Below, in pieces: positions 19,143 to 41,210 of a DNA stretch of 64,000 bases. The notes below the pieces were generated by a model. That model searched no databases. It was not told the DNA's origin and saw nothing but the letters and a program-made list of their open reading frames with translations. The stretch's first letter is position 1; each line of letters opens with the position of its first letter. The translations under genes were made by a program, and so were the position numbers. The stretch comes from Escherichia coli (GTDB lineage Bacteria; Pseudomonadota; Gammaproteobacteria; Enterobacterales; Enterobacteriaceae), in assembly GCF_024223415.1 (NCBI RefSeq), contig NZ_CP100500.1. The stretch is one strand, 5' to 3'.

Positions 19143-19429
19143 AGGGACCGTTCACAGTTATCAGGACGGACGGCATGTTGCGCCAACAGTCTTACCTGTG
19201 AACTGTATAGTGAACGTCTTTATGCTTATGGCAGTAAATCCACCAGTTGCAAACATCCCCCGCTGACCGGGGGAAAGTATTCATGTACCTGTTGTTGATT
19301 TACTGATGTCCATATCGGACATTCAGCATGATACGCGTTGTCATCCGGAACACGACTCTCTGTCGTATAAATATACCCCCGGATGAACGCTGTTTCGGAT
19401 GTGCGTACCTGGGGGCCTCAGGTGACAGC

Positions 19430-20464: not shown

Positions 20465-20494
20465 TTTTGATTCCTCTGTTAGCGAAAGACAAAA

Positions 20495-22015: not shown

Positions 22016-22081
22016 GACATTCTCCCTGAGCGAAATTCAGTGTACGTTCATGCAGGAACAAAACTGTTGCAGATAACCTTA

Positions 22082-22098
22082 AGCAACACCCATGCCAC
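22082..22098 (-). promoter_or_regulatory. Candidate sigma-54 (-24/-12) promoter for the aldehyde/alcohol dehydrogenase operon
   Basis: Minus strand reads TGGCAT-N5-TTGCT with GG…GC spacing as in the TGGCAC-N5-TTGCW consensus, about 70 bp upstream of the ALDH start. Confidence 0.5.
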
Positions 22099-22256
22099 CA
22101 AGTTGTTACACACAGTTAACAACAACAAAAACAGCCTGTTAGCCCAAAAAACAGACAACCGAAAAAGAATCACCACAGGAAAATGTGAAGCAAATAAAAC
22201 ATTTTCGATACACAAATGATACAATCATGCAACACAACTGTTGCAAGGATTGAATT

Positions 22257-24017
22257 ATGTTACGTAAGAGATCTGCAACTGAGTATCAGAAAGAAAAAGC
22301 CACGCTTCCGGTACTCCTGAGTGCATCATGGCAACGATGTACCGGCTATCATCTCGAAAGAGACAGTGCGCCCTCAGTATGTGTTGAGCATGACCAGTTA
22401 CGGGATCTCCGGTCGCACAACGGCTGGTCAGATATCCTTAAACAACAGTTCCCTGAATCAGGCTCTGATTTTTTCAGTAAATCACTGGTACTGGTTATTG
22501 CTGATGCATCAGGCGTGATCCTTGACACCTGCGGTAACAGGAAATTTCTGAATAAAGCCGAAGGTTTTTTCCTTTCCCCCGGTCATATCTGGACCGAACA
22601 ACACTACGGCACAAATGCCATAGGTACAGCGCTGGCTGTACAGCAGGCATGTGAAGTGAGGGGGAGTGAACACTGGCTCAACAGAAATTCAGGACTCTGT
22701 TGTTCGGCATACCCGCTATTTTCACCTGAAGGTTATCTTGCCGGTATCCTGGATTTATCGTCACCGGCAGATTTACCATTCCGTGATGCACCGGTGATTA
22801 TCAGGCGGTTTGTTCAGCAAACCGAATATCTCTGGACAACAAAACGACTCAATGCAGAGAGATATCTGTTGCATCTCCGCCGGGAAAACAACGCAGACAT
22901 CAGTGACAGTAGTGAATTTTTACTGGTCATTGAAGGTGATGTGATTGTTGGTGCCAACAGGCTCGCTGTGAATGAATTTGGCCTTCTTCCACCTTATGAT
23001 TCCGTCACTCTGGATACTCTCTTTACCGGGGGTAACAGACAGTCTGATTTTCTGGAATCGTGCAGCGGACAACGTTATCTGCAGCGACGCACCCGCCCCC
23101 ACAGAGCTGCCGTGAATCTGTCACCCCGCCTCCGTTTTCCATCGCGGCGTGAAGCGGACAACGAAAAAAAGGAAAAAGCACAGCAGTTAATCAACCACGG
23201 AATATCGGTCTGTATTACAGGAGAAACCGGAACGGGGAAAGAATATCTGGCGCGGGAGCTTCACCGTAACAGTTGCCGGAAAAACGGCAACTTTGTTGCA
23301 ATTAACTGTGCTGCCCTGCCGGAACACCTGACAGAATCAGAGCTTTTCGGATACGCTCCGGGAGCATTTACCGGCGCGAATTCCAGAGGTTATCCCGGGA
23401 AAATCAGGGAAGCCAGTGGCGGGATCCTGTATCTTGATGAAATCGGCGATATGCCGGCAACACTTCAGACACGGTTATTACGTGTACTGCAGGACAAAAA
23501 AGTGATTCCTCTGGGTTCAAACACGCCTGTGGACGTTGACTTCGTACTGATATCAGCCACGCACCGTGATCTGGATAAGATGTGTGCAGAAGGGACTTTT
23601 CGGGATGATCTGTTATACCGAATACGGGAATTTCACCTGCATCTTCAGCCACTTCGGGAAAGAAGCGACCTGGGTAAACTGATAGTTAAACTCTGGGAAG
23701 AATCTGAACAGGAGATGAAAAAAACCGTCATGCTGGGCAGTGAAATTATTGAAGATTTAAAACGACATTCATGGCCGGGGAATGTACGTCAGTTGCTGAA
23801 TGTGCTCAGAGTTCTGATGGCGCTGGCACGACCTGGAGGAAGAATCACTCCAGGTGATCTCAGCGTAGTGTCTGAAGATATTTGTCATATCCATAATACC
23901 GTAAAGATAGTGACCGAAAGAAAAATAGTGGATGAGGCCGGAGGAAACATCAGCAGAGCGGCAAAAATGCTGGGTATTTCCCGAAGCACATTATACAGAC
24001 GACTGAAAAGTCTGTAA
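22257..24017 (+). CDS. Sigma-54-dependent transcriptional activator (AcoR-like)
   Basis: AAA+ Walker A GETGTGKE, GAFTGA signature, C-terminal HTH; divergent from the ALDH operon. Confidence 0.85.
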   Translation: MLRKRSATEYQKEKATLPVLLSASWQRCTGYHLERDSAPSVCVEHDQLRDLRSHNGWSDILKQQFPESGSDFFSKSLVLVIADASGVILDTCGNRKFLNKAEGFFLSPGHIWTEQHYGTNAIGTALAVQQACEVRGSEHWLNRNSGLCCSAYPLFSPEGYLAGILDLSSPADLPFRDAPVIIRRFVQQTEYLWTTKRLNAERYLLHLRRENNADISDSSEFLLVIEGDVIVGANRLAVNEFGLLPPYDSVTLDTLFTGGNRQSDFLESCSGQRYLQRRTRPHRAAVNLSPRLRFPSRREADNEKKEKAQQLINHGISVCITGETGTGKEYLARELHRNSCRKNGNFVAINCAALPEHLTESELFGYAPGAFTGANSRGYPGKIREASGGILYLDEIGDMPATLQTRLLRVLQDKKVIPLGSNTPVDVDFVLISATHRDLDKMCAEGTFRDDLLYRIREFHLHLQPLRERSDLGKLIVKLWEESEQEMKKTVMLGSEIIEDLKRHSWPGNVRQLLNVLRVLMALARPGGRITPGDLSVVSEDICHIHNTVKIVTERKIVDEAGGNISRAAKMLGISRSTLYRRLKSL

Positions 24018-24337
24018 GAACAACGTGCTGCCGGATACGTTATTTGCGGGAAATTCCTGTTCTGTAAAATATATCTCAGGTTGTTAAAACCCTGTCATTC
24101 TTCCATGTGAACAGTATGAGAAACATCACACGGGTATATTCACGGCCGGCACAACCACAGACATAAATGATATCCTGCGCATCATTTCCTGATGCTCTGA
24201 TACTGAGTTAACCACTTATTTACATCTGACGATAAATTGTTTATTCATTCTTCAGGGTAAATAAAGCCATAAGGAGTGTGATATTCACGATACGCTGAAA
24301 ATCGGTGAACTGAAAAATGGCAGTTACAGGGGGAAAT

Positions 24338-25822
24338 ATGAGTGATTTAATTAATTTTATTAATGGCATAATATGGAGCCCGGCACTGGTCTGGCTTTGT
24401 CTTGGAACAGGCCTCTGGTTTTCTGTCAGGGGACGCTTCCTGCAGCTCCGGCATATTAAAGAAATGCGCCGTCTGATATTCCGGAGTAAACAGAATGATG
24501 CGGGCGTTTCCTCTTTTCAGGCACTCACGATGACACTGGCCGGACGGGTCGGAACCGGTAATATTGCCGGTGTTGCCACGGCTATCACCTTTGGTGGTCC
24601 CGGTGCATTATTCTGGATGTGGGTGGTGGCATTTCTCGGCGCAAGCTCAGCCTTTGTCGAATCCACACTGGGGCAAATTTATAAGGAAAAAATTAACGGA
24701 GAATACCGGGGCGGACCCGCTTTTTACATAGAAAAAGGGCTTGGGTTACGATGGTACGCATGGCTGTTTGCTGTGGTGACGGTGCTTTCCTGTGGGCTGT
24801 TATTACCCGGTGTCCAGGCGAATTCGATAGGAAGCAGCCTGAACCTTGCATTCGGGATTAGCCCCAATGTGACGGCAGCATTTATCGCCCTCCTTCTTGG
24901 ATTCATCATCTTTGGTGGTGTAAAACGGATTGCTGTATTTACCAGTACTGTCGTGCCTTTCATGGCTCTCGGCTATATCATTGTCGCGTGTGTCATTGTT
25001 GCACTTCATATTGAAAAACTTCCCGGCGTGCTCCTCCTTGTCTGGCGCTCTGCTTTTGGACTGGATGCAGGTTTTGGTGCCATTGTCGGGCTTGCCATTT
25101 CATGGGGGGTCAAACGTGGTGTCTATTCCAATGAAGCCGCTCAGGGAACCGGACCTCACGCCTCTTCCGCTGCGGCAGTGACACATCCGGTTAAACAGGG
25201 ACTGGTGCAGGCCTTTTCTGTATATATCGACACGCTTTTTGTCTGTTCAGCTACGGGATTTATGCTTCTTGTTACCGGTCTGTATAATGTTCAGGGCCCC
25301 GGTGATGTTGCCTTATATACCGGTATCGCCGGTGTGGCAGCCGGGCCCGGCTATGTGCAGACAGCCATGGAAAGTATGATGCCGGGGTTTGGTAATTATT
25401 TTGTCGCAATCGCACTGTTCTTTTTCGCATTCACCACGATTGTTGCTTACTATTATATCGCAGAAACTAACATTGCCTGGATTTGCCGTAAAACAGCACG
25501 CCCCTGGCTTATGATTGTACTGAAGATTATGCTGATGGTTTCTGCGGTATACGGTACGGTCAAAACCGCAGATATGGCATGGGGACTGGGTGATATAGGG
25601 GTTGGTATGATGGCATGGCTTAATATCATCGCTATATTGCTTATGGGAGGGACTGCGTTTAATTGCCTCAGGGACTACGAAAAACAGATGTCACAGAATG
25701 CTGACCCGGTATTTGATCCCGAACGCCTCAGTCTGCAAAATGCTGATTACTGGACAGAACACCGTGATGAAGTTAAAAAATTGAGTGAGCCCGGGCCCAC
25801 ATTCCGGACAACGTCGTCGTAA
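24338..25822 (+). CDS. Alanine/glycine:cation symporter (AGCS family)
   Basis: Collinear with YaaJ-type carriers from MSDLINFINGIIW. Confidence 0.85.
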   Translation: MSDLINFINGIIWSPALVWLCLGTGLWFSVRGRFLQLRHIKEMRRLIFRSKQNDAGVSSFQALTMTLAGRVGTGNIAGVATAITFGGPGALFWMWVVAFLGASSAFVESTLGQIYKEKINGEYRGGPAFYIEKGLGLRWYAWLFAVVTVLSCGLLLPGVQANSIGSSLNLAFGISPNVTAAFIALLLGFIIFGGVKRIAVFTSTVVPFMALGYIIVACVIVALHIEKLPGVLLLVWRSAFGLDAGFGAIVGLAISWGVKRGVYSNEAAQGTGPHASSAAAVTHPVKQGLVQAFSVYIDTLFVCSATGFMLLVTGLYNVQGPGDVALYTGIAGVAAGPGYVQTAMESMMPGFGNYFVAIALFFFAFTTIVAYYYIAETNIAWICRKTARPWLMIVLKIMLMVSAVYGTVKTADMAWGLGDIGVGMMAWLNIIAILLMGGTAFNCLRDYEKQMSQNADPVFDPERLSLQNADYWTEHRDEVKKLSEPGPTFRTTSS

Positions 25823-26084
25823 ATCAGAAACATTTTCCCGTCAGATGCCCGACGTATTCTGACGGTTAAGGGGCTGCAGGAGACGATATGCTCATTCCTG
25901 CAGCCCTGATTATTTCCCCTCCCTCCACAGGAAAAACATGCTCCCCTGTATTTTATACCAGATATTTTTATCTTTATCGTCCGGCCACCTTATGGTATAA
26001 AATCCGCAAACGGCAAGGCTGAACAGTACCTCGTTCCGGGTGGTTTGAGACTTTTCTGCCTTAGCCGTTTTCTGATCTTCAACC

Positions 26085-26303
26085 GTGGTATCAAAAATGA
26101 AAACAAAACAGGACTGGTTATTTCAGTTACGGCGATGCTCCAGTATTGAAACCCTGGAAAAAGTTATTGAGAAAAATCATTACTGCCTGACCCCATCAGA
26201 AATGGAAACATTCAATTCAGCGGCAGATCACCGGCTTGCAGAACTTAAAATGAATAAGCTTTATGACAAAATTCCGCCGTCAGTCTGGAAATATGTTTAT
26301 TAA
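26085..26303 (+). CDS. Hha/YmoA-family nucleoid-associated modulator
   Basis: 72 aa, near-collinear with Hha (…LRRC…[11 protein letters not shown]…[20 protein letters not shown]…). Confidence 0.8.
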
Positions 26304-26585
26304 GTCTGCGCCACATACGGGACAAATTCCCGGGGATACGTGACATATGCCGGTAACACAATCACAAATATCGCGGTTGTATCAGCAATTGTTGATACAA
26401 CGAAAAATTTGCACCTGACAGCGGGCAGAAATGAACAGGAAGAATCAAAGCACAACAACTTATTACAAAACTCCGCACTGCCATATCCTGCTTTCAGGAC
26501 CATGCTGATTTTCATGACTGTTCCGGCAGGAACAGTCATTACGCAAAAAACTCCCCGGTAAAACCATTATCTGCCCTCCTGAAAA

Positions 26586-26774
26586 TCACTTCTTCGCAAG
26601 AGTACAACTGAGTTCAGGTATTTTGAGCTGAACACGCACTTTTTTCTGCGCCGGAAAAAATTTACGGTATTCCTCTTCCTTCAGCACTTCACCGGTATTG
26701 CGCCGCCAGATAAATGGTATGCCATCACTTTTCTGAATAACTGCATTAATCTGATAACAGCTCATTTTTCTCAC
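26586..26774 (-). CDS. Hypothetical small protein (62 aa)
   Basis: ORF only; overlaps the 3' end of the GrlA-like gene. Confidence 0.25.
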   Translation of the reverse strand: MRKMSCYQINAVIQKSDGIPFIWRRNTGEVLKEEEYRKFFPAQKKVRVQLKIPELSCTLAKK

Positions 26775-27195
26775 TTTGTTCCGGCGGCATTTCTCCTGCC
26801 CGACGCGAACACATCCAGCGACGCAGAGCCGTCAGCGTGTCTTCTTCCTGAACGCTGCAGGATTTTGGTGTGGCTGGCTGTGGAGCGGGTTGCCGGTAAC
26901 GTATCCCTGAGGCTGGCACAGACGTCACGCCCGGAGATACTGACAGGATCCGGATGGCACGGATTTTCTGACGGTGCGCATCAATCAGGTTAAGTACTTC
27001 GCTGTCAATGAACTCCCGCGCATCGCGGGTAATGAAAAGCAGAATATCGTGTGCCTCTGCCTGGCTGATGCCGAATGCACGCGCAACACAGATTTCGGTC
27101 AGCAATACTTTTTCTCTCAATCCCCACATGGCAACAGCGACATGCAGCGGAGCATGCTCAAAATCACAGACAATTCCCGGTAACATTTTTCTCAT
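26746..27195 (-). CDS. CaiF/GrlA-family transcriptional regulator
   Basis: PLHVAVAMWGLREKVLLTEICVARAFGIS fits the CaiF/GrlA winged-helix pattern. Confidence 0.5.
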   Translation of the reverse strand: MRKMLPGIVCDFEHAPLHVAVAMWGLREKVLLTEICVARAFGISQAEAHDILLFITRDAREFIDSEVLNLIDAHRQKIRAIRILSVSPGVTSVPASGIRYRQPAPQPATPKSCSVQEEDTLTALRRWMCSRRAGEMPPEQSEKNELLSD

Positions 27196-27603
27196 GCCAT
27201 CATCACCACACTAATCCCGCATGACTGGTAATACTTTAACTTCACACGCCATGGACGACAATATGCTGTAAAATCGCATCGTGCCGATCACTGATTCGCA
27301 TCGCATCATCCAGCACATTTACTTTTCCCGGTGTTGAAAGGAAGTATTTGTGGCAGCTTGTTGAAAATACAACTCCACCGGTCAATCCCCAGGATATAAA
27401 GACAGCAACGATAATGCAGGCCAGCCCCGGAGAATAACCTGCAAGAAAAAATGATCCCCCACCCGGTATTAAGGCTGTATGGGCAGGTTAACACGGTGAT
27501 TACTGTCAGTTAATACCATCACGCCGGCCCCAAAAACCTGTGGGCAAGGGGATGTCGTGCGGATCACTGAGCAAATTCATCGGAATGCGCAGCAAAGCAC
27601 TCC

Positions 27604-29955
27604 TCAGAATAACCCCCCTTCACCATCAGCCACAATCCTGTATCCCATCGCCTTATAACCCCGCTGGCGTTTATCCCACATTCTGAGCAGCACAGGATAC
27701 GCTTTATCCACAAAATCAATGATCCTGACATCGCTTTTACCGGTATACTGTCTGTGCAGACGCCCTGCATACTGCTGTAACGTCCCTTTCCATGACACCG
27801 GCATCGCCAGAATCAGCGTATCCAGCGGTGGGTGGTCAAATCCCTCACCAATAAGTTTACCGGTTGACAACAGAATGCGGGGAGAATCCTGAGGAAGCGC
27901 ATTTAACTCAGAAATCAGCATTGTACGCTTTTTTTTCGATAACCGGCCATGAAGCACAAAGGGTGACAGGTTCAGTGAATGCATTACTGATGCTATATCA
28001 TCCAGATGCTCTTTTCGTTCAGTCAGTACCAGAACTTTACGTCCCTGCGCGAATGCCTTCATGGCTTCTTCAGCTATCGCCACAGTCCTGTCATGATCAA
28101 GCGCAATTTCTCTGAAAATATCCTGGATCCCCGCATCCGATGGTAAATGTCCGGATGTAAAACGGAAACGGAGCTGCACTTCCAGATTATGCGGACTTTC
28201 CTTCGGGCTGGCCGCTGTGTGACGAAGGGCACCACAGTACATAAAAATGATGGGATGCAGACCATCCCGTCGGACAGGCGTTGCCGTCAGTCCCAAAAGA
28301 TATCTGGCATTCGTTTCCTTCAGAACAGCAGAAAATGAAAACGCTCCAGCATGATGGCACTCATCAACTATGACTTGCCCGTAATTCCTGACCACAGGTG
28401 CAACTTTGCCATGCCTGAACAGAGACTGCACAACAGCAATATCAATATTGCCAGAGGGGTTATGTTTGCCCCCTCCGATAATACCAATACCGTCACTGGT
28501 CTGCAGAAATACCCCAAGCCGCTCCTGCCATTGCTTTAATAACTCAGTCCGGTGTACCAGTACAAGTGTATTAACTCTCCGTCGTGCAATCACAGCCGCG
28601 GCGGTAACCGTCTTACCAAAAGCCGTTGGCGCACAAAGTACACCAGAATCATAACGGAGCAATACCGAAACAGCCTCTTCCTGATCCGCTCTGAGGTTTC
28701 CCGTGAACACAGCATGACATTCTGTACCTGCAAATCGTTCATCGATGATTTCTGCAGCAATATTGTTGTCACTGAGGAAGGATAATGCGCTGTCCAGACA
28801 TCCACGGGGTAACGCAATGTGTTGCGGATAATTTTCCGCACAACCTGTAACCCGGGGTTTATTCCAGACAGACATTCTCATGGCCTGAGCCTTATAAAAC
28901 ACAGGATTAGGAAACGCAGCCAGTCGAATAAGCCGGTTGGCCAGCGGCTGAGGTAATTGCGCTTTTTCGAAATAGATCTGGTTTGCCAGCGTGATTCTCA
29001 GCGGCTCAGCAACAGAAACCGTCAGTTTGTTTTCTGATGATGTTTTCCACGGCGTGCTCAGGTCTTCGTCGGTAAAGTTCACATCCAGTGGATGAATACT
29101 TCCTGTAGCCCGTAATATTGTCGGTTCTATATCCTGCACATTCATCGGGATCACCGATGCCAGGAATGCCCACTGATCAGGATAAGGCTGAAAATTCATA
29201 TCAACAAAAACACTGCCTCCCGATTCACGCGGTCTTTTTTGCAGAGGTAACGCGATGAGATTGCCGAATCCCCCTTTTGGCATGGTATCCTGATTAGGAA
29301 ATAATCGGTCATAAGAACTCAACCGCAGTTGCCGGGAACGGCTACACGTATGGCTGATAACGGCTGTCCCCAGTCGGCGTGCATCACGGGCCGAAACCCG
29401 GGAAGCAAAAAATATCCAGACATGCGCCCCCTGACGTGAGCGGGATATTTCCAGCGCTGCGGGTATCCCCAGCTCATCACAGGATCGCATGAATGCGGAT
29501 GCATCCTTCTGCCATTCAGCATCATCAAAATCAACAGCCAGAAAATAACAGGAATCGTCTTCCAGCAGCGGATATACCCCGACTGTATGGTAGCCTGCGA
29601 GATGACGGTAAATGACAGGATCGGATACAGGTAGCAACTGACGGTGTGCGCAGTCACCGCATTTTATCCCGGGCTTACCGCAGATTCCCGGCTTCCATTC
29701 GTTAGCACAGGCCGGCGAATACCCTGATTTACCACTGACCTGACTTTCCCAGCGAAGGGCCCATACATCATCACGCCCACGAAACAACCGACGAAATAAT
29801 GAAACCTTCTGTTCAGCAGATAATGCGGAAACATGATGTACAGAACGCTGCGGTTTACGTCGCCATTCAATCCCGTGAGCTTCAAGTAATGAGGCCAGAC
29901 GGGCATTTTCTGCCCTCAGTGCAGCTAATTCGTCGTTATCAGATTGACACACCAT
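27604..29955 (-). CDS. Putative primase-polymerase / SF2 (DEAD/DEAH-type) helicase fusion protein
   Basis: C-terminal helicase motifs I AFGKT, II DECHH, III TAT, VI QYAGRLHR; N-terminal zinc ribbon CGKPGIKCGDCAHRQ and acidic DFDD motif. Confidence 0.75.
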   Translation of the reverse strand: MVCQSDNDELAALRAENARLASLLEAHGIEWRRKPQRSVHHVSALSAEQKVSLFRRLFRGRDDVWALRWESQVSGKSGYSPACANEWKPGICGKPGIKCGDCAHRQLLPVSDPVIYRHLAGYHTVGVYPLLEDDSCYFLAVDFDDAEWQKDASAFMRSCDELGIPAALEISRSRQGAHVWIFFASRVSARDARRLGTAVISHTCSRSRQLRLSSYDRLFPNQDTMPKGGFGNLIALPLQKRPRESGGSVFVDMNFQPYPDQWAFLASVIPMNVQDIEPTILRATGSIHPLDVNFTDEDLSTPWKTSSENKLTVSVAEPLRITLANQIYFEKAQLPQPLANRLIRLAAFPNPVFYKAQAMRMSVWNKPRVTGCAENYPQHIALPRGCLDSALSFLSDNNIAAEIIDERFAGTECHAVFTGNLRADQEEAVSVLLRYDSGVLCAPTAFGKTVTAAAVIARRRVNTLVLVHRTELLKQWQERLGVFLQTSDGIGIIGGGKHNPSGNIDIAVVQSLFRHGKVAPVVRNYGQVIVDECHHAGAFSFSAVLKETNARYLLGLTATPVRRDGLHPIIFMYCGALRHTAASPKESPHNLEVQLRFRFTSGHLPSDAGIQDIFREIALDHDRTVAIAEEAMKAFAQGRKVLVLTERKEHLDDIASVMHSLNLSPFVLHGRLSKKKRTMLISELNALPQDSPRILLSTGKLIGEGFDHPPLDTLILAMPVSWKGTLQQYAGRLHRQYTGKSDVRIIDFVDKAYPVLLRMWDKRQRGYKAMGYRIVADGEGGLF

Positions 29956-30115
29956 ACCCTGAATCCATATTTCTTATAACCTGCCCCGGGATACTGCGCT
30001 GCACACGACAGAAACTCGTGTCGTCCCCCGGCACTGACAGCTCCCCGTACCTTACGATACATTAACGTTATCCCCTCACGATCCCTTACGGCAATCTTGC
30101 TTTATTCTCCCCCTT

Positions 30116-30679
30116 TCAGTTGTGTCGCGGTCGGCCGCGGTTACTTTTTTCAGGTAGTCTGCTACGCATCAGAATAATACCGTGTTCTTTCTGATCCTGT
30201 TTAGCCAGGTAGCTAAGGGCGTAACGTAAGTCATCTACCGCAGATTTATTACTATAGCGAATTACGTGATCAATACGCACCGGGTATTTATCTTTAGCCC
30301 GGCACAGGTGAAAATAACCATCCCCTTCCGTGATCCGCCTCCAGATATCTCCCAGCAGCCTGGATATCCGGTAAGATTTCTTGTGCCGTTGTCCATCCAG
30401 ATAGCCGATAAAATGAATATGAAGTCCCTTGTTTTGTGTATATTCCATAACCCAGTAATATCCTGCCAGAATCGTTTGGGTTTCGCTAAGTAAGCGCTGC
30501 ATCTCAATACACATACTGTGCTTACAGGAATGACCGAAACTGGGCGTGTCTTTCCTGTAGGCAAAATCAATTCTGAAAGGTAACAGTTTAGAAAAACGTT
30601 GAAACATACCTTCCATGTGTTTATTCACGTCTTTCAGAATCGTGAAATTCATTTCGTAATTGGGATTGGCATTGTACAT
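30116..30679 (-). CDS. HUH-motif protein, inovirus Gp2-like / YfjJ-YagK family
   Basis: GLHIHFIGYLD HUH-type motif; alignable with ORF 14155-14748. Confidence 0.65.
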   Translation of the reverse strand: MYNANPNYEMNFTILKDVNKHMEGMFQRFSKLLPFRIDFAYRKDTPSFGHSCKHSMCIEMQRLLSETQTILAGYYWVMEYTQNKGLHIHFIGYLDGQRHKKSYRISRLLGDIWRRITEGDGYFHLCRAKDKYPVRIDHVIRYSNKSAVDDLRYALSYLAKQDQKEHGIILMRSRLPEKSNRGRPRHN

Positions 30680-31628
30680 TTCATAGTCCTTACTTTATGA
30701 AGGTTGCAGGAAGAAGGAATTACGTAAATACTGAGGGCACAGAAAGGCCGTACCACGGCATTAATAAAAGAGATAACCAGCAGCACAGACAACCTGATAA
30801 AAATGTTTTGTATTACCTCATTACAGCAACGAGGTAATATTTCAGAATACAGTGAGACTCTCTTAAACTGAGGACCAGTACGACTTACAACGGTAAAAAC
30901 ACACCTCATATAATTGAGTTTCAGGAAGCACCATTCAATTACTGTCTCCCTGACATTCACAAAAGTCAGTATCGGGTAGCTACAGGCAACATCGCTATTG
31001 ATACTCCCGCACCATTAAATAAAAACAGAGACTCTGCAGAGAGAGCCTACAGATATTTAACCTCTCCACATAAGAATAATGGTATACAGTCCCCACACCA
31101 TCAAAAGATTGCTTCAGGATAATATTTCCTCATACCTGTAAACAGTACTGAGCCATAACACCAAAACTGAAGATAACATGCACTGATACGTACTTAACAT
31201 CAGTTACGTATCAGACACACATCAGTGGATTAGCTCCCTCAACATCACAGCGAACATTATAATTTATCGCACTACTAAACACTCTCTGGCTGTATGAAGG
31301 CACATGCATTACGCATCTACGGAATGGTCAGCATACAGAGGAGTGACATTGTAAACAGATAACAGATAACATAACTCCCATTAATAATACTAATTAACCT
31401 AAATTATTTATTGAATACGAGAACAATGAGGGAACCTCCTCATCCAGGACTAATGCCAGCAATATCCTGAGCAACACTCTATCCAATAGTAAATAATGGT
31501 TATAACTGTTATATTTACTGACTGACCTGTACCAGCGTTCTGTAATACAACAACGCTGAGATGCTAATGGCATAAGTCTCCTCCGCTATTTACGGAGGAG
31601 ACTATATGTTACTCAACGATTAAGTCAT

Positions 31629-33062
31629 TCAGAGGTCAAAGTTAGGTGCGACATACCACGTTTTATCGTCCATAAGCTGTACAACTCTGTTTTGCTCATA
31701 CAGTAAATCCAGTAACCAGTTGAGTTTATCTTTTTTACGGAAACGATTCGGGCCACGCTGTAAAATGTCATTTTTTTTCATACAGGGAACCCCCTTCTCA
31801 ATGCAATAGCTTTTTATCCAGTTAAAAAGTTCAAGCTCCTCCGGAATGAGTCGCATAGTTACGGTCTGGGCAGAGTTTTCAAACGTTAACGGACTGGATA
31901 ACCGAATATACTCATTACCGTACCATATTGCTAATTCTCTCGCCATTTCAGCTGTGTAGGGGGAAATGTCACCTTCCTCACCGCTGACATGGTGAATAAG
32001 CCCAGCCAGTCTTGCCATATACTCTGCATTTTTAGCAGCATATTCTCTGAAGTCTCTTAAAGGCCCCAGAACCGCCATCTTCGATTCCACATCGTTGTAA
32101 TAGTCCGTCCAGATTCTGGCTGCCTGAGGAGAAAAGTGAAGGCAACGTCGCTCTCCCCTCATAGCCAGGCTTTCATCAATAAGTTCATTGATCCTCTTGT
32201 CAAATAACTCCTGATACTGTGATGAATAATTATCTCCGGTTATTATCCTTGTCCCCTGCGTTGATGTTGGTTGACACATCAAAAACCGTGCATGATGTCC
32301 TGATGTCTTCACCAGTTCTTTTTTTCGTGTACAAAAACCTTTGTGGTAAACATCAGGCTGAATCATCACCGATATCGTCAGTCTTGGGTCCTTCAAAAAA
32401 ATCCCGGGAGATGATTTCCTGTCGATGAAAAGGGAACTACCATCCCATAAAGAGTTAAGTATTCCCAGTTTGCTCATTGCCCGGCTGTCAAAAATCACCC
32501 CGCCCTCACTGGATACAAGAGCAAAAGAGCGATTGCTGTCGGAATAATATTTAAACATTCCCTCTGTCGTCGTATCATTAAAAATTGTCCGATTTATCTG
32601 CGGTGGAACAGGACAACTATTCAGATGCATTCTGAGCTCTGATTCTGTTGCTTCATACTCTTTACCGGCACGAATCTCTTTATGAAGTTTTGACTCCAGT
32701 GCCTTTTGTTTTTGCTCCCATATTTCCTTTTCTGCACTGTAATTCTCAACCAGTTTCGCATATTCTTCCGCAAGAGTTTCATCCCTGAGATAAAATGCTT
32801 TCATAAAAACTTTATCCACGGTCGTTTTCCTTTCGCCGGAATCAGCCAGAATCATAGCGTAAAGATTAGAGGGGCCACGTAAATTACCAGGTCTGCACAC
32901 ATCAATCTGATTCTGACAGGCAACTGACACCGCTGTTAATGCTGCTGTTGCAACCAGAGCCCCGGGCGCCTGTGTATTTTGCTGAGTTTCAATTATTGCA
33001 TTTCTCACCAGAGATGTTAATGCATTTATCGGAAAAGGGGCTTCCTGTTCAAGTAAGGACAT
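31629..33062 (-). CDS. DUF3987-type protein (YfjI-like)
   Basis: Position and composition match CP4-57 YfjI; start set at internal ATG 33062 (GAGG RBS); hairpin 31576-31606 downstream. Confidence 0.7.
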   Translation of the reverse strand: MSLLEQEAPFPINALTSLVRNAIIETQQNTQAPGALVATAALTAVSVACQNQIDVCRPGNLRGPSNLYAMILADSGERKTTVDKVFMKAFYLRDETLAEEYAKLVENYSAEKEIWEQKQKALESKLHKEIRAGKEYEATESELRMHLNSCPVPPQINRTIFNDTTTEGMFKYYSDSNRSFALVSSEGGVIFDSRAMSKLGILNSLWDGSSLFIDRKSSPGIFLKDPRLTISVMIQPDVYHKGFCTRKKELVKTSGHHARFLMCQPTSTQGTRIITGDNYSSQYQELFDKRINELIDESLAMRGERRCLHFSPQAARIWTDYYNDVESKMAVLGPLRDFREYAAKNAEYMARLAGLIHHVSGEEGDISPYTAEMARELAIWYGNEYIRLSSPLTFENSAQTVTMRLIPEELELFNWIKSYCIEKGVPCMKKNDILQRGPNRFRKKDKLNWLLDLLYEQNRVVQLMDDKTWYVAPNFDL

Positions 33063-33321
33063 AAATACCTCAATTTTAGTTAATAAATCAGTAAAGTAGC
33101 AGATATTCCCGCTATAATAGCCAAAATAGCTGCTATGCATAGCCGATATGTTCTGAAAAATACAGTAATCGGGCATACCTGATGTTGAACAAAACGATAA
33201 GGTTGATTCAATTCAGCCTGTATTATTAGCTACGTAACATCATTCACATTGCTCACTCCTGACATCTTCTGATGATTATTTCAACGACGCCTTATTCATG
33301 GTCGTTTTCCTTTTTCATGAA

Positions 33322-33543
33322 TCAAAAAACAACCATAGTGTAAATATTCATGGGTTCACGAAAATTATCTAATCTGCACACATTAGTCAGATCCTGACGG
33401 GAAATTGACATATCTGTTAATACTGGCATTGCCATCAGAGTCAGAGGTACTTGTTTATTATATTGAGCTTTAATCATTGCCTTTCCCATCATTAATGATC
33501 GCGCATATACTGAATACGGCGTATCCGGTTTTATGTAAGACAT
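33322..33543 (-). pseudogene. Truncated tandem duplicate of the YfjI-like N-terminus (73 aa)
   Basis: DNA and protein alignable with the first ~90 codons of 31629-33062 (…VCR..N.R.P.N.Y.M…), then frame break and stop. Confidence 0.5.
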
Positions 33544-33718
33544 AAATGCTTCCTTTGTCGTAATGCGTGTCGGTTATAGCAGCAATTACCGCTACAATAG
33601 CGACAATAGCTGCTCTTTCAACAATGAATGCTGGAAATTCTGTTTATCAATTAAACTTCTGGCTAAATTATTCTTATGCTTCTTTTTCCTCCTGAGGTGA
33701 TCACGTGATGACAAAAAC

Positions 33719-34015
33719 TTATCTGCTCATGGTCATATCTGAAGAAAGCGTATGTCGCACTTCGTCATTAACACCTTTTACTGCTGATCTGGCTGGTACA
33801 GTATGTAAAGTAAGCCATTCGTCAATAGCTGATGAACGCCAGCCCACAGAACCACTACCAAGACGTACCGGCCTTGGGAAGGTTGCATCGTAATATTTCG
33901 ATAACGGATTCATTTTTTCGTAAATTGTCGAACGAGATATACCTAACAATTGGCTCAGTTCAGGCATCCGTAAGATGCGTGAAGGAGTCCAGCAGTGTCC
34001 GGATTGATCTGGCAT
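33719..34015 (-). CDS. alpA: AlpA-family phage regulatory protein
   Basis: …ILRMPELSQLLGISRSTIYEKMNPLSKYYDATFPRPVRLGSGSVGWRSSAIDEWL… matches the AlpA fold; start at internal ATG. Confidence 0.7.
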   Translation of the reverse strand: MPDQSGHCWTPSRILRMPELSQLLGISRSTIYEKMNPLSKYYDATFPRPVRLGSGSVGWRSSAIDEWLTLHTVPARSAVKGVNDEVRHTLSSDMTMSR

Positions 34016-34223
34016 TTTATCCCCCTTAGTGTGGTGAACTGTCGTTACAGTTTGTATTCCTCGGGTAAATTTTTCTGCGTAAAAAAATGGGTTGAGCAAA
34101 AAGACAATAAACAACTAAAAATCAATATGATAGGAAACAACAGCATTATTGTTATTTTACTTTTCCCTTATCGCTGTCGATTCTCATTATCATTCATGGC
34201 AAAAAAACAGTAAAAGAGGCCCT

Positions 34224-34971
34224 AGTAATGACTCCGGTCAGTAGTACATGTGCTTCGATAAATGAACCAATGGCTTTTCGTTAATTTCCACGGAGCGTGA
34301 AAAGCAAATCGTTTTCAGGGATGGGAGTTTGATGTGAGTACGAAGTATCAGATTGTTGCGCTCAATGCGCCGGGTAAATATCCTGCCGACAGGATGCTTA
34401 TCCTGTGGTACTTCTCTGGTATAACTGCACCAGTTTTCACTGGTTATCATGCCTGAGGAGAATGGCTTCAGAAGTTCCGGCAACTCACTACATGTTTCAT
34501 CAGTACGAGGACCAAAAGTGTAAGCCCGCACACCGCCAGATTTGGTGTTATACGCATACCAGAGCCAGTGCTGACGAGCTTTGTTTCCGACAAAGCTCCA
34601 TTGTTCATCAAGTTCGCATATAAGCGCCACATCGGCACTGGCGACTGGAGATGTGGTTACTTTGCATGGTGAGCGTTTTTTAAAGTGCGAATGACTGTGT
34701 TGATACCCACCTTCAGTGTTCTGGAGGTATCGCGAACCCCGGTTCCGTTATGAGCCATTTCAACGATTTGCTCTTTAACACTTGGTTTTCGGGCTTCGCA
34801 GGTGTAATTCAGTTGAAATACACGTTTGCAGGAGCGGCACTGGAAACAGTGCTGTGACCGTGACGGTACACTTTATCGGAATTACAGCGGGGACAATGTA
34901 CGGTAACTGTTGCCATATGGACTCCGGATACCAACAGAATACCCCATTAATCTGCCCCCGGAAGTCATCCC
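34224..34971 (-). mobile_element. IS1-family insertion sequence, divergent copy with frameshifted insA
   Basis: Terminus AGTAATGACTCC at 34224-34235; InsA-like start at 34916; A6C frameshift motif before insB'. Confidence 0.7.
34238..34630 (-). CDS. insB: IS1 transposase InsB' segment
   Basis: ICELDEQWSFVGNKARQHWLWYAYN…RTHIKLPSLKTICFSRSVEINEK matches IS1 InsB. Confidence 0.75.
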   Translation of the reverse strand: MALICELDEQWSFVGNKARQHWLWYAYNTKSGGVRAYTFGPRTDETCSELPELLKPFSSGMITSENWCSYTREVPQDKHPVGRIFTRRIERNNLILRTHIKLPSLKTICFSRSVEINEKPLVHLSKHMYY

Positions 34972-35111
34972 GGTGCCTTCTGACATAATCTGTTAATACA
35001 TGAATTATTGCCCTGTTCAGAAAATATTAATTAAAAAATGAAAACCAGTTAACAGAAAAGCCACATGACATAATGTTAAAATTTTATATCGTGCAATAAA
35101 AGGAGAATGTT

Positions 35112-36938
35112 ATGTACAATTTTATCACTATAATGTATGATGTCTTTTCATGTTTTGGTGTTCTGGCTAAAAACCAGAATATCCGTGACATCCGAAATAT
35201 TAAAAACTTTTCCTCACATCAACATTCACTGGCCGACATGTTTGATGAATTAACATACATTATTGACAAAGAACAGGTACTGAGCACAGAACAACGAAAA
35301 GTTATATTCAGGAGATATGAAGATCTGTATGTTAAACTCATGCACTATTCTGTTTTTACAGACAAAACACATCAAATAATAAAACAAAAATATTTTAATG
35401 ATGTTGTTCCAATGATTCTCGCGCTCGACATCAGGAACACATATCGCCCGGATAATGAGATGGCATTTTACTATCATATCCATTCTTTTCTCACTCAGAT
35501 ACCGGATAATGAGGATGATATATATCATGCTGTAAGGACATATATGAGAAATTATGTTAAGTTATGTTTATCCGGATACACACCAACGAATGCGCATTTC
35601 AAAAATATCTTTGATGGAGTATATGAATTCATTCGTAATATTCGCAAAAACAGTACACCCGGAAAAACAAAACTTATTGCAGCTATCAACATATGCAAAG
35701 AAGCCTGTAAATATCTGCTTTGTTTAAGTGATAAAGACAAGGAAATAATATTTTCCGACTTAGATAAAATTCAGGTTGCATGTTATTCTCTCACTATATT
35801 ACTGGCTTTCGAAAGACGAACATCATTAACAAGTAACCTGGCAACTTTATATAAAATGCTGATAAACGAAAGAGAAGTTTCAGAATATGAATGTCAGCAA
35901 TTATATTTAATCAACCCAATAGATGTAATGAATATACTGAACAAATACATATATTACTTCCCTGGTGAGAATTCACCTCTTTATACACTGAAAATTGACA
36001 GTGCATTATCGTGGGATGCCATTGATGCAATACGAGACTATAGTATTTCTGATATTTATCTTTATCCTGAACAAAAAACAATAAATTGTATCGTTGAGAT
36101 TGAAAACATTGTCTTTGGCGGTTACATTTATACATTGAGCGACGGCGTCACATTACAAAATATGGAAAACACTTTAAAAGATTCCTCATGTCATTATGTA
36201 TTAAATGGCTATACAGAATTTGTTAACTGTTTAAGACAACTTACTTCAGGAAAGACTGAAAGTGTTCAGCGTACCATTAATAAACTGGAGTACGAAAAAT
36301 TACCTTTTGGATTTATCATTGCCGCGTTTGCTATATTAAAAATAGCATTTAAGATAAAGTTCAGTAAAAATCATGTAAATACCAGGGCATTATTAAATGA
36401 CATCAGTTATTTTATGACTTATCAGGGCGAGTCCATTAATCTTATTTCACTGGATCATGAATATCCAGAGTTCCGTCTTCAAAATGACACAAATACATAT
36501 TTATTGGGAAGGATGATATTTCTATATAACTCAATGATCTATAAATTCAGAAACTGCCAGGAACATGAAACCAATAACATTAACTCAGTTATGATAAATA
36601 ACCTATTACAGGAAGTTGATATAGCCCTTGGTAAAATAAATGACATTATAGACAGCAGAAACATATCAGTCCCCCATGAACTGGCAAATATTCTTATCCA
36701 CGAAAAAATACTTACAACACGTGAAAAAAAAGGAAACCTGATAAGCCTGTTTGATGGATTCACTTTATTCCATTGTGTTGGAATGATAACCTTTCTTATC
36801 CATTACCTCAGAACTCCTGAAGAAAAAGTAGAAAATGTATTTATGTTATATGGTGCAGATAAAAACAATAAACTACGCAGAAGACTGATTTATGATGCAC
36901 TAGAAATAATTCAGTCTCAGCAGGAGATGAAACCTTAA
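35112..36938 (+). CDS. Hypothetical protein, 608 aa, AT-rich orphan (no recognisable domain)
   Basis: AAGGAG six nt upstream of the ATG; composition far more AT-rich than flanks; hairpin 36962-36986 downstream. Confidence 0.8.
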   Translation: MYNFITIMYDVFSCFGVLAKNQNIRDIRNIKNFSSHQHSLADMFDELTYIIDKEQVLSTEQRKVIFRRYEDLYVKLMHYSVFTDKTHQIIKQKYFNDVVPMILALDIRNTYRPDNEMAFYYHIHSFLTQIPDNEDDIYHAVRTYMRNYVKLCLSGYTPTNAHFKNIFDGVYEFIRNIRKNSTPGKTKLIAAINICKEACKYLLCLSDKDKEIIFSDLDKIQVACYSLTILLAFERRTSLTSNLATLYKMLINEREVSEYECQQLYLINPIDVMNILNKYIYYFPGENSPLYTLKIDSALSWDAIDAIRDYSISDIYLYPEQKTINCIVEIENIVFGGYIYTLSDGVTLQNMENTLKDSSCHYVLNGYTEFVNCLRQLTSGKTESVQRTINKLEYEKLPFGFIIAAFAILKIAFKIKFSKNHVNTRALLNDISYFMTYQGESINLISLDHEYPEFRLQNDTNTYLLGRMIFLYNSMIYKFRNCQEHETNNINSVMINNLLQEVDIALGKINDIIDSRNISVPHELANILIHEKILTTREKKGNLISLFDGFTLFHCVGMITFLIHYLRTPEEKVENVFMLYGADKNNKLRRRLIYDALEIIQSQQEMKP

Positions 36939-36961
36939 ACAGGAAAATTATTTTTTATAAA

Positions 36962-36986
36962 CAGGGGATTATTGAGTAATCCCCTG
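36962..36986. terminator. Hairpin CAGGGGATTA-N5-TAATCCCCTG between the convergent 608-aa ORF and int
   Basis: Perfect 10-bp inverted repeat; T-run on the minus-strand side. Confidence 0.5.
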
Positions 36987-37122
36987 CTCATCAAAACCCA
37001 CTTTCCTGACAATCTGATAACTATCAGCTCAATACATTTGACATAAAAGAGATCCCTTAATTATTACCGTTACGGTCACAATCACATATCAAATCATGAT
37101 TGTACAATATACATTTTCACTA

Positions 37123-38325
37123 TTATTTATTCATAATCTGAGACATCACATAATCCGCCCATGCCTGCATCATCGGTACACGCTGCTCCAGTAGATCAGT
37201 ACGATGATATGCCGCCTCAACCTTATTTTTCAGCGTATGAGCGAGCGCCCTTTCAGCCAGATCCCGCGAATACCCCTGCTCACTACACCAGTCCCTGAAT
37301 GTTGAACGAAAACCATGTGCCGTGGCGACTCGCCCCGGAATATCACTGACGGCTTTCTTTTTACGCAGAAAACTGGTCAACACCATATCTGAAAGGATCT
37401 GCTGCTTTCTGGGTGAAGGAAACACCAGTTCATCATGCAGACCACGTATATTTTCCAGAATGTAAATAGCCTGTCGGGATAAAGGAACACGATGCTGTAC
37501 CCTGGCTTTCATTCTTTCTGCTGGTATCGTCCATATCTGCTTATGAAAATCAATTTCAGTCCAGCGCATTCCCCTGGCTTCACCCGAGCGGGTTGCTGTA
37601 AGTATCACCATTAATAACAATGCGCGGGTAACATTATAGGGTTCATCGGTATACACACTGGTCGCCACAAAAAGCGGTAACTGCCTCCATGGCATTGCGG
37701 GTTGGTGTTCATCACGTCCTCTTGTCTGCTGGGGAAGCAAATGATCAACCACATCCACAGGATTTGCCACACAAAAACCATGTGCCCATCCCCACTGCAT
37801 AACAACATGAATGCGCTGTTTAACCCGGCTTGCCGTTTCTGACAAAGTTAACCAGACTGGCCGCAGTGTTTCTGCCACGTCCGCAGCCGTAATCGAATCC
37901 AGCGTTTTCGCTCCCAGTTGAGGAAAGGCGTAATTCTCAAGCGTCGATAACCACTGCCGGACATGCTTTGGATTTTCCCATCCAGGAGACAGTTCTGCAT
38001 GTACACGTCTGGCTGCATCGGCAAATGTTGGGATAACAACTTTTTCAGCCTCAGCCTTTTTAATCTCCAGAGGATCATCACCAGCAGCAAGTTGCTCTCG
38101 CATTATCCGGGCAGTACGTGCAGCTTCAGCAATGCTGATCTCAGGGTAAGTTCCCAATCCAGCATTACGCCTTTTTTGTGTCACCGGACTTACATAACGA
38201 AAAACCCATTTACCCCGACCCTTTACTGAAGAAGGATGAAGGGTCAGTCCTGTAATTCCCCCATGGGGCAATGGTTTGTCATCAGGTTTGATATGCCTTG
38301 CTTTCGTATCCGTCAATACTGCCAT
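37123..38325 (-). CDS. int: Tyrosine-type site-specific integrase (P4/CP4-57 IntA-like)
   Basis: IntA-like N-terminus and C-terminal catalytic region (…HGFRSTFRDW…, …LAHTLKNKVEAAYHR…). Confidence 0.9.
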   Translation of the reverse strand: MAVLTDTKARHIKPDDKPLPHGGITGLTLHPSSVKGRGKWVFRYVSPVTQKRRNAGLGTYPEISIAEAARTARIMREQLAAGDDPLEIKKAEAEKVVIPTFADAARRVHAELSPGWENPKHVRQWLSTLENYAFPQLGAKTLDSITAADVAETLRPVWLTLSETASRVKQRIHVVMQWGWAHGFCVANPVDVVDHLLPQQTRGRDEHQPAMPWRQLPLFVATSVYTDEPYNVTRALLLMVILTATRSGEARGMRWTEIDFHKQIWTIPAERMKARVQHRVPLSRQAIYILENIRGLHDELVFPSPRKQQILSDMVLTSFLRKKKAVSDIPGRVATAHGFRSTFRDWCSEQGYSRDLAERALAHTLKNKVEAAYHRTDLLEQRVPMMQAWADYVMSQIMNK

Positions 38326-38343
38326 ACGCTAATTCCTGTTACT

Positions 38344-38367
38344 CTGGTATGCCATCTGGTATGCCAT
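38344..38367. repeat. Tandem 12-bp direct repeat CTGGTATGCCAT x2 upstream of int
   Basis: Two exact adjacent copies; possible integrase arm-type or promoter element. Confidence 0.5.
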
Positions 38368-38485
38368 TATCTTCACGCTTCAGTCAGAATACAGTAGATG
38401 ACATCAGACAGTAAAATATGCAATATACTGTTTATAATCAAATTTTATGACACAACAGGACTCATTCAGATTCATTTCAGGCGGT

Positions 38486-38499
38486 CCCCCTCACCGCCA
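38486..38499 (+). other. 3' remnant of tRNA-Ser (serW-type att core)
   Basis: CCCCCTCACCGCCA matches the last 14 nt of E. coli tRNA-Ser(GGA); the remainder of the tRNA is absent upstream. Confidence 0.5.
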
Positions 38500-38500
38500 T

Positions 38501-38540
38501 ATTTAAAGAAGAGCTCGTACGAAAGTGCGAGCTTTTTTTT
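38501..38540 (+). terminator. Rho-independent terminator after the tRNA remnant
   Basis: GAGCTCG-N10-CGAGC followed by a nine-T run. Confidence 0.6.
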
Positions 38541-38543: not shown

Positions 38544-38692
38544 CATTTTATCTGCCTGTACGGCAGTGAACATGGTGGGCGGGTGGAGTATGTTACCAGT
38601 GAATTTCTAAGCTGCCTGTACGGCAGTGAACGTTTGCTGCAACCGCTAGCCAAGACGGTAGGTTTTTCTAAGCTGCCTGTACGGCAGTGAAC
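38544..38692 (-). CRISPR. Orphan type I-F CRISPR mini-array (3 repeats, 2 spacers, no cas genes in window)
   Basis: Two exact copies of TTTCTAAGCTGCCTGTACGGCAGTGAAC (38604-38631, 38665-38692) plus a degenerate copy ending at 38571; spacers of 32-33 bp. Confidence 0.8.
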
Positions 38693-38903: not shown

Positions 38904-41180
38904 TTAATGCGCTGCTTCCGCCTTGTGCTTTTGTGCACTCTGAAATCCGTAAGTCAGCTCATTTTTCTCTTTATCCAGCGCGACGGTGACCTGACCGCCG
39001 TCCACCAGCGAACCAAACAGCAGTTCGTTGGCAAGCGGTTTTTTCAGGTTGTCCTGGATGACACGCGCCATCGGACGAGCGCCCATTGCCCGGTCGTAAC
39101 CTTTCTCGGCCAGCCAGTTACGCGCTTCCTGGCTCACTTCCAGAGAAACACCTTTCTGATCCAGCTGAACCTGCAACTCGACGATGAATTTATCCACCAC
39201 CTGATGGATCACGTCAGTTGACAGATGATCGAACCAGATAATGTTGTCGAGACGGTTACGGAATTCCGGTGTAAAGATCTTCTTGATCTCTTCCATCGCA
39301 TCGGTGCTGTTATCCTGGTGGATAAGACCAATGGATTTGCGCTCAGTTTCCCGTACCCCGGCGTTAGTGGTCATCACCAGTACCACGTTACGGAAGTCCG
39401 CTTTGCGTCCGTTGTTATCGGTCAGCGTACCGTTGTCCATCACCTGCAACAGAATATTGAACACGTCCGGATGCGCTTTCTCGATTTCGTCCAGCAGCAG
39501 CACCGCATGTGGATGCTTGATGACCGCATCAGTCAGCAAACCGCCCTGATCAAAACCAACGTATCCCGGAGGCGCACCAATCAGACGGCTGACGGTATGG
39601 CGTTCCATATACTCGGACATATCAAAGCGCAGAAGCTCAATGCCCAAAGCTTTCGAAAGCTGTACCGTCACCTCTGTTTTCCCGACCCCGGTAGGACCGG
39701 CAAACAGGAACGAACCGACCGGTTTATGTTCGTGACCTAAACCTGCACGCGCCATCTTAATGGCTTCAGTCAGCGCCTCAATGGCTTTATCCTGACCGAA
39801 GACCAGCATTTTCAGGCGATCGCCGAGGTTTTTCAGGGTATCGCGGTCACTCTGAGAAACACTCTTCTCTGGAATGCGTGCAATACGGGCCACCACGGAC
39901 TCAATATCCGCCACATTAACGGTTTTCTTGCGTTTGCTTACCGGCATCAGGCGTGCGCGAGCGCCCGCTTCGTCGATAACATCAATCGCTTTATCCGGCA
40001 GATGACGATCGTTAATGTATTTCACCGCCAGCTCTACCGCCGCACGCACCGCTTTTGCGGTATAACGCACGTCGTGGTGCGCTTCATACTTCGGTTTCAG
40101 GCCATTGATGATTTGAACAGTTTCTTCGATCGACGGTTCAGTAATATCAATTTTCTGGAAGCGACGCGCCAGAGCACGGTCTTTCTCGAAAATGTTGCTG
40201 AACTCCTGATAGGTTGTCGAACCAATTACGCGAATTTTACCGCTGGAGAGCAACGGTTTGATTAGGTTAGCCGCATCGACCTGACCACCAGACGCTGCAC
40301 CCGCACCGATAATGGTGTGGATCTCATCAATAAACAGGATGCTGTTAGTGTCCTGCTCCAGCTGCTTGAGCAACGCTTTAAAACGTTTTTCAAAGTCGCC
40401 GCGATATTTTGTGCCCGCTAACAGAGAACCGATATCGAGAGAGTAAATCGTACAGTCAGCCATCACTTCCGGCACATCGCCCTGAACAATTCGCCAGGCA
40501 AGACCTTCTGCAATCGCGGTTTTACCGACACCAGATTCCCCCACTAGCAGCGGGTTGTTTTTACGGCGACGGCAGAGAACCTGAATAGCACGCTCCAGCT
40601 CCTTCTCACGACCAATCAGTGGGTCGATTCCGCCCACGCGCGCAAGCTGATTCAGGTTCGTCGTGAAATTCTCCATACGTTCCTCCCCACCAGCTTGTTC
40701 TTCGCTGTTTGGCTGGCTGCCAGGATCAGAAGACTGTGTCGGCTCGTCTTTACGCGTGCCATGAGAGATAAAGTTCACCACATCGAGACGGCTGACTTCA
40801 TGTTTACGCAACAGATATGCCGCCTGCGACTCCTGTTCGCTAAAGATAGCGACCAGAACGTTTGCACCGGTAACCTCATTGCGACCGGAGGACTGGACAT
40901 GGAAGACCGCACGTTGCAGTACACGCTGAAAACTCAGCGTCGGCTGTGTGTCGCGCTCCTCTTCACTGGCAGGCAGAACGGGTGTGGTTTGTTCAATAAA
41001 GGCTTCCAGTTCCTGACGGAGCGCAACCAAATCCACAGAACACGCTTCCAGCGCCTCCCGGGCAGATGGGTTACTGAGCAGCGCCAGTAACAAGTGCTCG
41101 ACGGTCATAAACTCATGACGGTGCTCGCGCGCTCTGGCGAAAGCCATATTTAAACTGAGTTCCAGTTCTTGATTGAGCAT
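38904..41180 (-). CDS. clpA: ATP-dependent Clp protease ATP-binding subunit ClpA
   Basis: Matches E. coli ClpA throughout as recalled ([24 protein letters not shown]…); two AAA+ modules. Confidence 0.95.
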
Positions 41181-41210
41181 AGGCACCTCCCCCAATTTTT
41201 ATGCCTGCAT

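Follow-up and report, generated by a model that had tools for sequence, protein, structure and literature searches.

The stretch of Escherichia coli DNA analysed here, referred to as the window (64 kb), carries a 14-bp fragment identical to the end of a serine tRNA gene, placed between a P4-type integrase gene on its left and a CRISPR array and clpA on its right (Table 1). A Rho-independent terminator follows the fragment, and the hexamer GGCGGT precedes it. To the left of the integrase gene there are several further genes of a mobility module, and then a long run of metabolic genes and IS elements that continues up to the left edge of the window. A sequence-only reading had taken the fragment and its terminator for a displaced attachment site at one end of an island integrated in a tRNA gene, and here we follow up that proposal by comparison with complete genomes and related islands.

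Table 1. Position of the features discussed in the text; coordinates are those of the window unless another locus is named.
Feature	Position	Strand	Remarks
Island DNA, partial	1..38485		Metabolic cargo, IS elements; continues past the window's left edge
TOTE-type AEP primase-helicase	27604-29955	-	Pfam
187-aa protein	30116-30679	-	
DUF3987/YfjI-family protein	31629-33176	-	Pfam
AlpA-family small DNA-binding protein	33719..34016	-	98-aa gene call in related loci
IS1 fragment	34238-34630		
608-aa hypothetical protein	35112..36938	+	Second gene of the mobility module; beside int in all related loci
P4-type tyrosine integrase, 400 aa	37123..38325	-	Pfam Arm-DNA-bind_3, Phage_int_M, Phage_integrase
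Tandem 12-bp repeat TCTGGTATGCCA, two copies	38343..38366	+	Candidate arm-type integrase sites, just upstream of the int start codon
GGCGGT, island side	38480..38485	+	Inverted repeat of the ACCGCC within the core, 7 bp (CCCCCTC) between
14-bp att core / direct repeat, CCCCCTCACCGCCA	38486..38499	+	Displaced original serW 3' end (cryptic serW')
Native serW Rho-independent terminator	38505..38540	+	Has stayed joined to the displaced end
Orphan type I-F CRISPR array (CRISPR4.1-2)	38544..38692	-	Three repeats and two spacers; Rfam CRISPR-DR4
clpA	38904..41195	-	Chromosomal flank right of the attachment site; ORF, annotated clpA in matching genomes
Island-supplied terminator after the reconstituted tRNA	L003 19225-19310, L020 26466-26545, L023 6925-6994		GCGCATGTTATTGTTTAACATGCGC and a T run

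The displaced end of serW and its terminator

The sequence-only reading had claimed an exact match of 14 nt to the 3' end of tRNA-Ser(GGA), with the rest of the gene missing upstream, and had named two observations that would speak against it, i.e., an intact tRNA found at this position with a different tool and a 14-mer occurring at chance frequency. The match is exact and corresponds to nt 75–88 of the 88-nt tRNA-Ser(GGA) gene serW/serX, taken from a K-12-type genome. Only one exact copy of the 14-mer exists in the window, and a search that allowed up to two mismatches gave a single further match at 34525, an unrelated site. As a reference, simple arithmetic gives a chance expectation of about 5e-4 exact matches to a 14-mer in 2 x 64 kb. 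No tRNA was detected by ARAGORN in the whole 64-kb window, nor by Rfam at E≤10 over positions 37000-39500, and a BLAST of the window showed that the 5' part of serW, infA and aat are all absent. Because neither ARAGORN nor Rfam finds a tRNA, the rest of the gene can be taken as truly missing. Both parts of the claim are confirmed, and neither of the two contrary observations was made.

The terminator had been described as canonical and native, lying immediately after the remnant, and this description was correct. The segment folds into a hairpin with a GAAA loop followed by nine T residues (-21.3 kcal/mol, z = -5.3), and the same sequence is found behind the intact serW gene in the K-12-type empty locus and also behind serX. 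A few weak Rfam matches over this segment (a Thr leader and MicC, the latter scoring 33 bits where the gathering score is 90) were discarded as they were driven by the terminator hairpin. With regard to the native context of these genes, serW and serX share the terminator, and fragments of the tRNA end occur at serX without any integration. Units of the RtT type were seen at positions 7160-7790 of a K-12-type serX locus (L018) and at 9560-9830 of another locus (L006), each containing 19 nt of the tRNA end.

The boundary between chromosome and island

The comparison with the clpA-serW-infA region of K-12, which had been put forward as a way to check the proposal, placed the boundary where the 14-mer begins. 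When the window is aligned pairwise with the unoccupied K-12-type infA-serW-clpA locus, similarity starts exactly at 38486, and the aligned native part then runs through the terminator, the CRISPR array and clpA. Directly to the left of the 14-mer the window reads GGCGGT, versus GAATCC in the tRNA gene. The same limit was found when a query of 651 bp across the site was compared with 5426 complete E. coli genomes. All but one of them (5425) contained a match, which in the great majority (>5000 genomes) begins at query base 187, equivalent to position 38486 of the window, and the features annotated at the matched boundary were tRNA-Ser and clpA. The whole sequence left of 38486 is island DNA, foreign to the empty locus, and that on the right is native.

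The right-hand backbone is that of E. coli, with 98.9% identity to the closest complete genomes. The CRISPR array adjoins the serW terminator on its right side and is present in the K-12-type empty locus as well, with one spacer fewer; it belongs natively to the clpA-infA interval, outside the island, and had gone unnoticed in the sequence-only reading. This orphan CRISPR4 locus has been already described (PMC3903273). Its three repeats, 28 nt long, score 50.1, 50.1 and 29.7 bits against the Rfam model, and the leader-distal one is degenerate. The extra spacer (38632-38664) is common to 530 of the 5426 complete E. coli genomes and had no protospacer in the phages or plasmids searched.

A second integrated element was found further to the right, between clpS and cspD (41616-52107, ca. 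10.4 kb), and is absent from a related locus (L005). It is flanked by imperfect direct repeats of 22 bp, ATGATAGATAACTATCATTTAT (41616-41637) and ATGATAAATAACTATCATCTAT (52086-52107), and codes for a P4-type integrase of its own (50681-51919, minus strand), a primase with D5_N/DUF5906 domains (45812-47560), a ProQ/FinO-domain protein (43859-44539) and a small terminase-type protein similar to Nu1 (43091-43645). In its gene content this element looks like a phage satellite, either P4-like or PICI-like.

Integrase and mobility module

The start codon of the integrase gene lies 161 bp from the 14-bp core, the distance of about 160 bp given by the sequence-only reading being accurate. The protein has the domain set of the P4 type. 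The Phage_integrase domain was recognized by Pfam with an E value of 7e-20, and the catalytic residues R246, H337-x-x-R340, H363 and Y373 can be read from the sequence of the C-terminal domain. The integrase of OI-43 in strain EDL933 is identical to it at 392 of 400 residues (98%). An identical integrase protein was found in 420 blocks of the genome collection, and in other assemblies it adjoins clpA, i.e., the serW site, as well as ycdU/dgcT, i.e., the serX site. In this look-up of exact proteins, the contigs of draft assemblies that contain the identical integrase end within the mobility module or just past it. Over its 11.4 kb, the int module is 99.9% identical between serW-located and serX-located copies in other assemblies, as would be expected because the integrase targets two identical tRNA genes. 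Some of the serX-located islands (L009 and L019) directly abut a DUF2726 gene and phoH, without the usual pgaABCD-dgcT-ycdU genes, an arrangement that points to a deletion beside the island in these two cases.

The next gene of the module, coding for the 608-aa protein, belongs to no Pfam or NCBIfam family. The AlpA-like gene is the third from the island end and is intact, with a match to Phage_AlpA (Pfam, E 1e-18, for 33719-34114). The excision factor of the SRL pathogenicity island (PAI) of Shigella, rox, is the orf3 of that island. By analogy of position, the AlpA-family protein is likely the equivalent of Rox and would act as a recombination directionality factor. Deeper in the module, the product of the primase-helicase gene is a 783-aa fusion of an archaeo-eukaryotic primase domain of the type found in TOTE conflict systems and a DEAD/ResIII helicase, with the DUF3987/YfjI-family gene beside it.

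Cargo and distribution of the island

The cargo detected by Pfam in the first 27000 positions of the window is metabolic in character, and not of the virulence or resistance kind. It comprises a class-III aminotransferase, an amino-acid permease, an LldD-like FMN dehydrogenase, a lactate permease and an MFS transporter, together with a KdgT permease, a four-carbon acid-sugar kinase-like protein, a PdxA-like dehydrogenase, an aldehyde dehydrogenase, a sigma-54 activator and an alanine symporter. An IS21-like transposase (9734-11269) and a YhgA-like gene are also part of the island. This exact island was not found in any of the complete E. coli genomes of the collection, where the best match of the mobility module had about 90% DNA identity. 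The region between 13.5 and 27.6 kb was never contiguous with the int module in the complete E. coli genomes, and the best single place covers 42% of positions 13500-38485.

The far end in related islands

The sequence of the far-end junction is not present within the 64-kb window. As there is no tRNA, serW 5' part, infA, aat or far-end junction anywhere in it, the island runs off the window, and we have looked at the architecture of its relatives. An intact tRNA with a second copy of the 14-bp core was found at the far end of three related islands, as the sequence-only reading had predicted. In EDL933 (L003) the junction next to the integrase is the same as in the window, and an intact serW is located 87 kb from the integrase end, its last 14 nt being the second repeat. 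The bases following serW in this strain, GATTATAAGCGCATGTTATTGTTTAACATGCGC and then a T run, are island DNA that provides a new terminator for the gene. Strain 23CRST013 (L020) has the same two-ended arrangement at serX, and its cargo is 100% identical to positions 1-9700 of the window. The third case is the assembly GCA_964249815.1 (L013/L023), in which, a single contig contains both the shared cargo and, at a distance of 26.4 kb on its left, an intact serW with infA, aat and cydCD next to it. The shared DNA is 99.96% identical to positions 1-9742 of the window (L013), and the serW of this contig has the same orientation as the remnant described here (L023). The terminator supplied by the island at the far end is predicted to be a stable hairpin (-18.3 kcal/mol, z -6.7), and a tandem pair of the motif GTATGCCA comes next to it.

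Size and far end of the island in our strain can be estimated from these relatives. It is at least 38.5 kb long and probably about 65 kb, if its left part is organized as in L013/L023. By the same comparison, the second repeat and the intact serW of this genome would be located beyond the window. The junction expected there would lie some 65 kb left of 38486 and is predicted to consist of the 88-nt tRNA-Ser(GGA) gene by infA, with GATATTGAGCGCATGTTATTGTTTAACATGCGC-T7 and a GTATGCCA pair behind it.

Candidate arm sites and a possible attP

The tandem 12-bp repeats that the sequence-only reading had noticed near the integrase gene, and had considered as possible arm sites, are present just upstream of its start codon. 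The 8-mer GTATGCCA within them forms a tandem pair in all the integrase ends examined, its copies lying 139 and 127 nt away from the core. At every tRNA end a second tandem pair is located 56-57 and 68-69 nt beyond the core, always in the same strand, and the 8-mer is otherwise nearly absent from loci of 9-49 kb. In the two sequence lineages compared, the 8-mer is invariant and the 3-nt linker between its copies varies. In the window, the 10-mer RGTATGCCAT appears four times versus 0.38 expected. Single copies of GGTATGCCAT at 20333 and 26716 were considered as internal att arms and rejected, given that they are not paired in tandem, have no core nearby and, in one case, have a coding context. 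The integrase itself carries an arm-DNA-binding domain (Arm-DNA-bind_3, Pfam). The occurrence of the GTATGCCA repeats at both ends with fixed spacing supports the view that they may be arm-type sites for the N-terminal domain of the integrase. The presence of the repeats is a matter of observation; their proposed function draws on this comparison, and we still refer to them as candidates. No biochemical mapping of the arm motif was found in the literature searched, which did not include the primary SRL papers (Turner 2001, 2004).

The hexamer GGCGGT precedes the core in every island and is invariant in the four island ends aligned (4/4), and a hairpin is predicted by folding for the GGCGGT/ACCGCC pair. 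These two hexamers could be the core-type half-sites of the integrase, with the 7-bp CCCCCTC between them as the overlap region, and the geometry is as expected. A broader proposal can be made from the comparative anatomy of the islands, which would define a full attP composed of two GTATGCCA pairs and the GGCGGT/CCCCCTC/ACCGCC core, with self-repression of the integrase through the arm pair that overlaps the 5' region of int, and with a replacement terminator for the tRNA. We consider that the chances of this complete scheme being right are about even.

Origin of the junction

The explanation that we favor, with a probability of roughly 0.93, is that the segment represents the junction, on the integrase side, of the chromosome with a large genomic island of the SRL/OI-43 family, inserted in a site-specific way in the 3' end of serW. 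The interpretation of the remnant as a displaced att copy of a tRNA-integrated island is upheld by the exact break of similarity, the OI-43-like integrase and the published 14-bp repeat. The comparisons described above directly demonstrate where the junction lies, what the core is, to which family the integrase belongs and that the related islands have a two-ended architecture. In the proposed sequence of events, the P4-type integrase would have recombined the 14-bp core carried by the island in its circular form with the same 14 nt at the end of serW. The tRNA body and one copy of the core would have been carried to the far end beside infA, outside the window, where a terminator supplied by the island would follow the completed tRNA. 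The second copy of the core, together with the native terminator of serW, would have been left stranded between the integrase gene and the flank formed by CRISPR4 and clpA. The AlpA/Rox-like protein might stimulate excision by recombination of the two 14-bp copies, after which serW would be whole again and followed by its native terminator.

A different view of the same junction, which we consider unlikely, would be that it is genuine but belongs to an island that is now a fixed fossil, i.e., the repeat or the junction at the far end has been lost by deletion or IS rearrangement and the remnant is inactive in recombination. The far end cannot be seen within the window, and the island does contain IS elements and fragments (the IS1 fragment, the IS21-like transposase and the YhgA-like gene). 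In the published family internal deletions mediated by IS are frequent, and strain 95S has no upstream junctions (PMC3064760). On the other hand, the integrase gene is full length, with the identical protein so widely found in the collection, and the AlpA-like gene is intact. The core, the arm repeats and the spacing between them are the same as in islands known to excise, and a related serW island with the same cargo retains a perfect junction at its far end.

Explanations other than integration were also considered. In the serX locus of K-12 there are tandem units of about 181 bp, annotated as RtT sRNA, each ending in AATCCCCCCCTCACCGCCA and the same terminator, and some strains have units of the RtT type annotated at the clpA-serW locus too. 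The sequence-only reading had been made without knowledge of these native units. The remnant and its terminator might be one more of these native repeats, as after serX/tyrT, instead of an integration scar, but the details at this site make such an origin very improbable. The fragment here has 14 nt and five C residues versus seven, and no RtT-unit sequence is found upstream; what is found there, i.e., GGCGGT and the preceding 160 bp, is conserved in the islands and absent from the empty locus. In L006, moreover, the island junction and a native unit coexist and are plainly different. Nothing other than the shortness of the match would favor a coincidental 14-mer, or what remained after a deletion had taken the 5' part of serW with no relation to site-specific recombination. 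We give this last possibility hardly any credit. Very few exact matches are expected by chance, the 14-mer is colinear with the native terminator downstream, the same junction is repeated base for base in independent islands at two chromosomal sites, and a deletion extending leftwards would have taken the essential gene infA. We retain site-specific integration in the 3' end of serW as the explanation of the junction.

Relation to known islands

The attachment site found here is already described for the islands OI-43 and OI-48 and for the SRL islands; the finding holds, but it is an ordinary one. OI-43 and OI-48 are bounded on both sides by perfect 14-bp repeats, TGGCGGTGAGGGGG. These correspond to the final 14 bp of serW/serX, and the Shigella SRL island has identical repeats (Bielaszewska et al. 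2011, PMC3064760). The published repeat is the reverse complement of the CCCCCTCACCGCCA of the window. Both islands excise precisely between the repeats, which in the case of OI-43 happens in ca. 1.8e-3 of the cells (PMC3064760). The resemblance to OI-43 (EDL933; SpLE1 in Sakai) is close and includes the location in serW between infA and clpA, the 14-bp repeat, the junction of GGCGGT with the core and the arm repeats. The int gene of OI-43 is likewise at the remnant end, with a DUF4942/DUF957/CbtA module at its intact-tRNA end. The differences lie in the cargo of OI-43/48, which carry ter, ure and iha in contrast to the metabolic genes found here, and in the mobility module, with a DNA identity of ca. 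90-95%.

The SRL PAI of Shigella shares with our island the 14-bp repeats at the 3' end of serX/serW, a P4-family integrase as orf1, and rox as orf3, comparable to the AlpA-family gene. A 2020 review gives serX and serW as the sites of the SRL PAI, with 14-bp repeats. Genes for DUF957 and DUF4942 proteins are found near the opposite end of the SRL PAI. Unlike the island described here, it is inserted in serX, and its cargo includes antibiotic-resistance, fec and D-aspartate genes. The link between the SRL PAI and the window goes through the published nucleotide identity of 99% between the SRL int and the P4-family integrase genes carried by OI-43 and OI-48 (PMC3064760).

At a more general level, the integrases of the P4/CP4-57 type, with a lambda-style attP, have the same succession of an N-terminal arm-DNA-binding domain, a central domain and a catalytic one (R, H-x-x-R, H, Y). 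They also share the tRNA 3'-end target, a short duplicated core and repeated motifs at either side. In the present case, however, the target is tRNA-Ser(GGA), and the candidate arm motif, GTATGCCA arranged as tandem pairs, is peculiar to the SRL/OI-43 family. The RtT repeats resemble the remnant in that the same terminator comes after a piece of the tRNA 3' end, but they contain 19 nt of this end, are native and arranged in tandem, and bear no relation to any integrase.

Implications

For this strain of E. coli, the analysis fixes the right boundary of the island to the base and assigns its integrase system to the SRL/OI-43 family. Beyond annotation the consequences are small. The full attP outlined above, if true and not already mapped, would be a modest refinement of a known system, obtained in a variant island with metabolic cargo. 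The native RtT repeats of serX are a warning that a fragment of tRNA 3' end with a terminator is, by itself, no proof of an integration scar. The combination of the core with GGCGGT and the GTATGCCA pairs makes a signature with which both ends of these islands can be located in draft assemblies. The island of this strain is predicted to be able to excise precisely and also to occupy serX.
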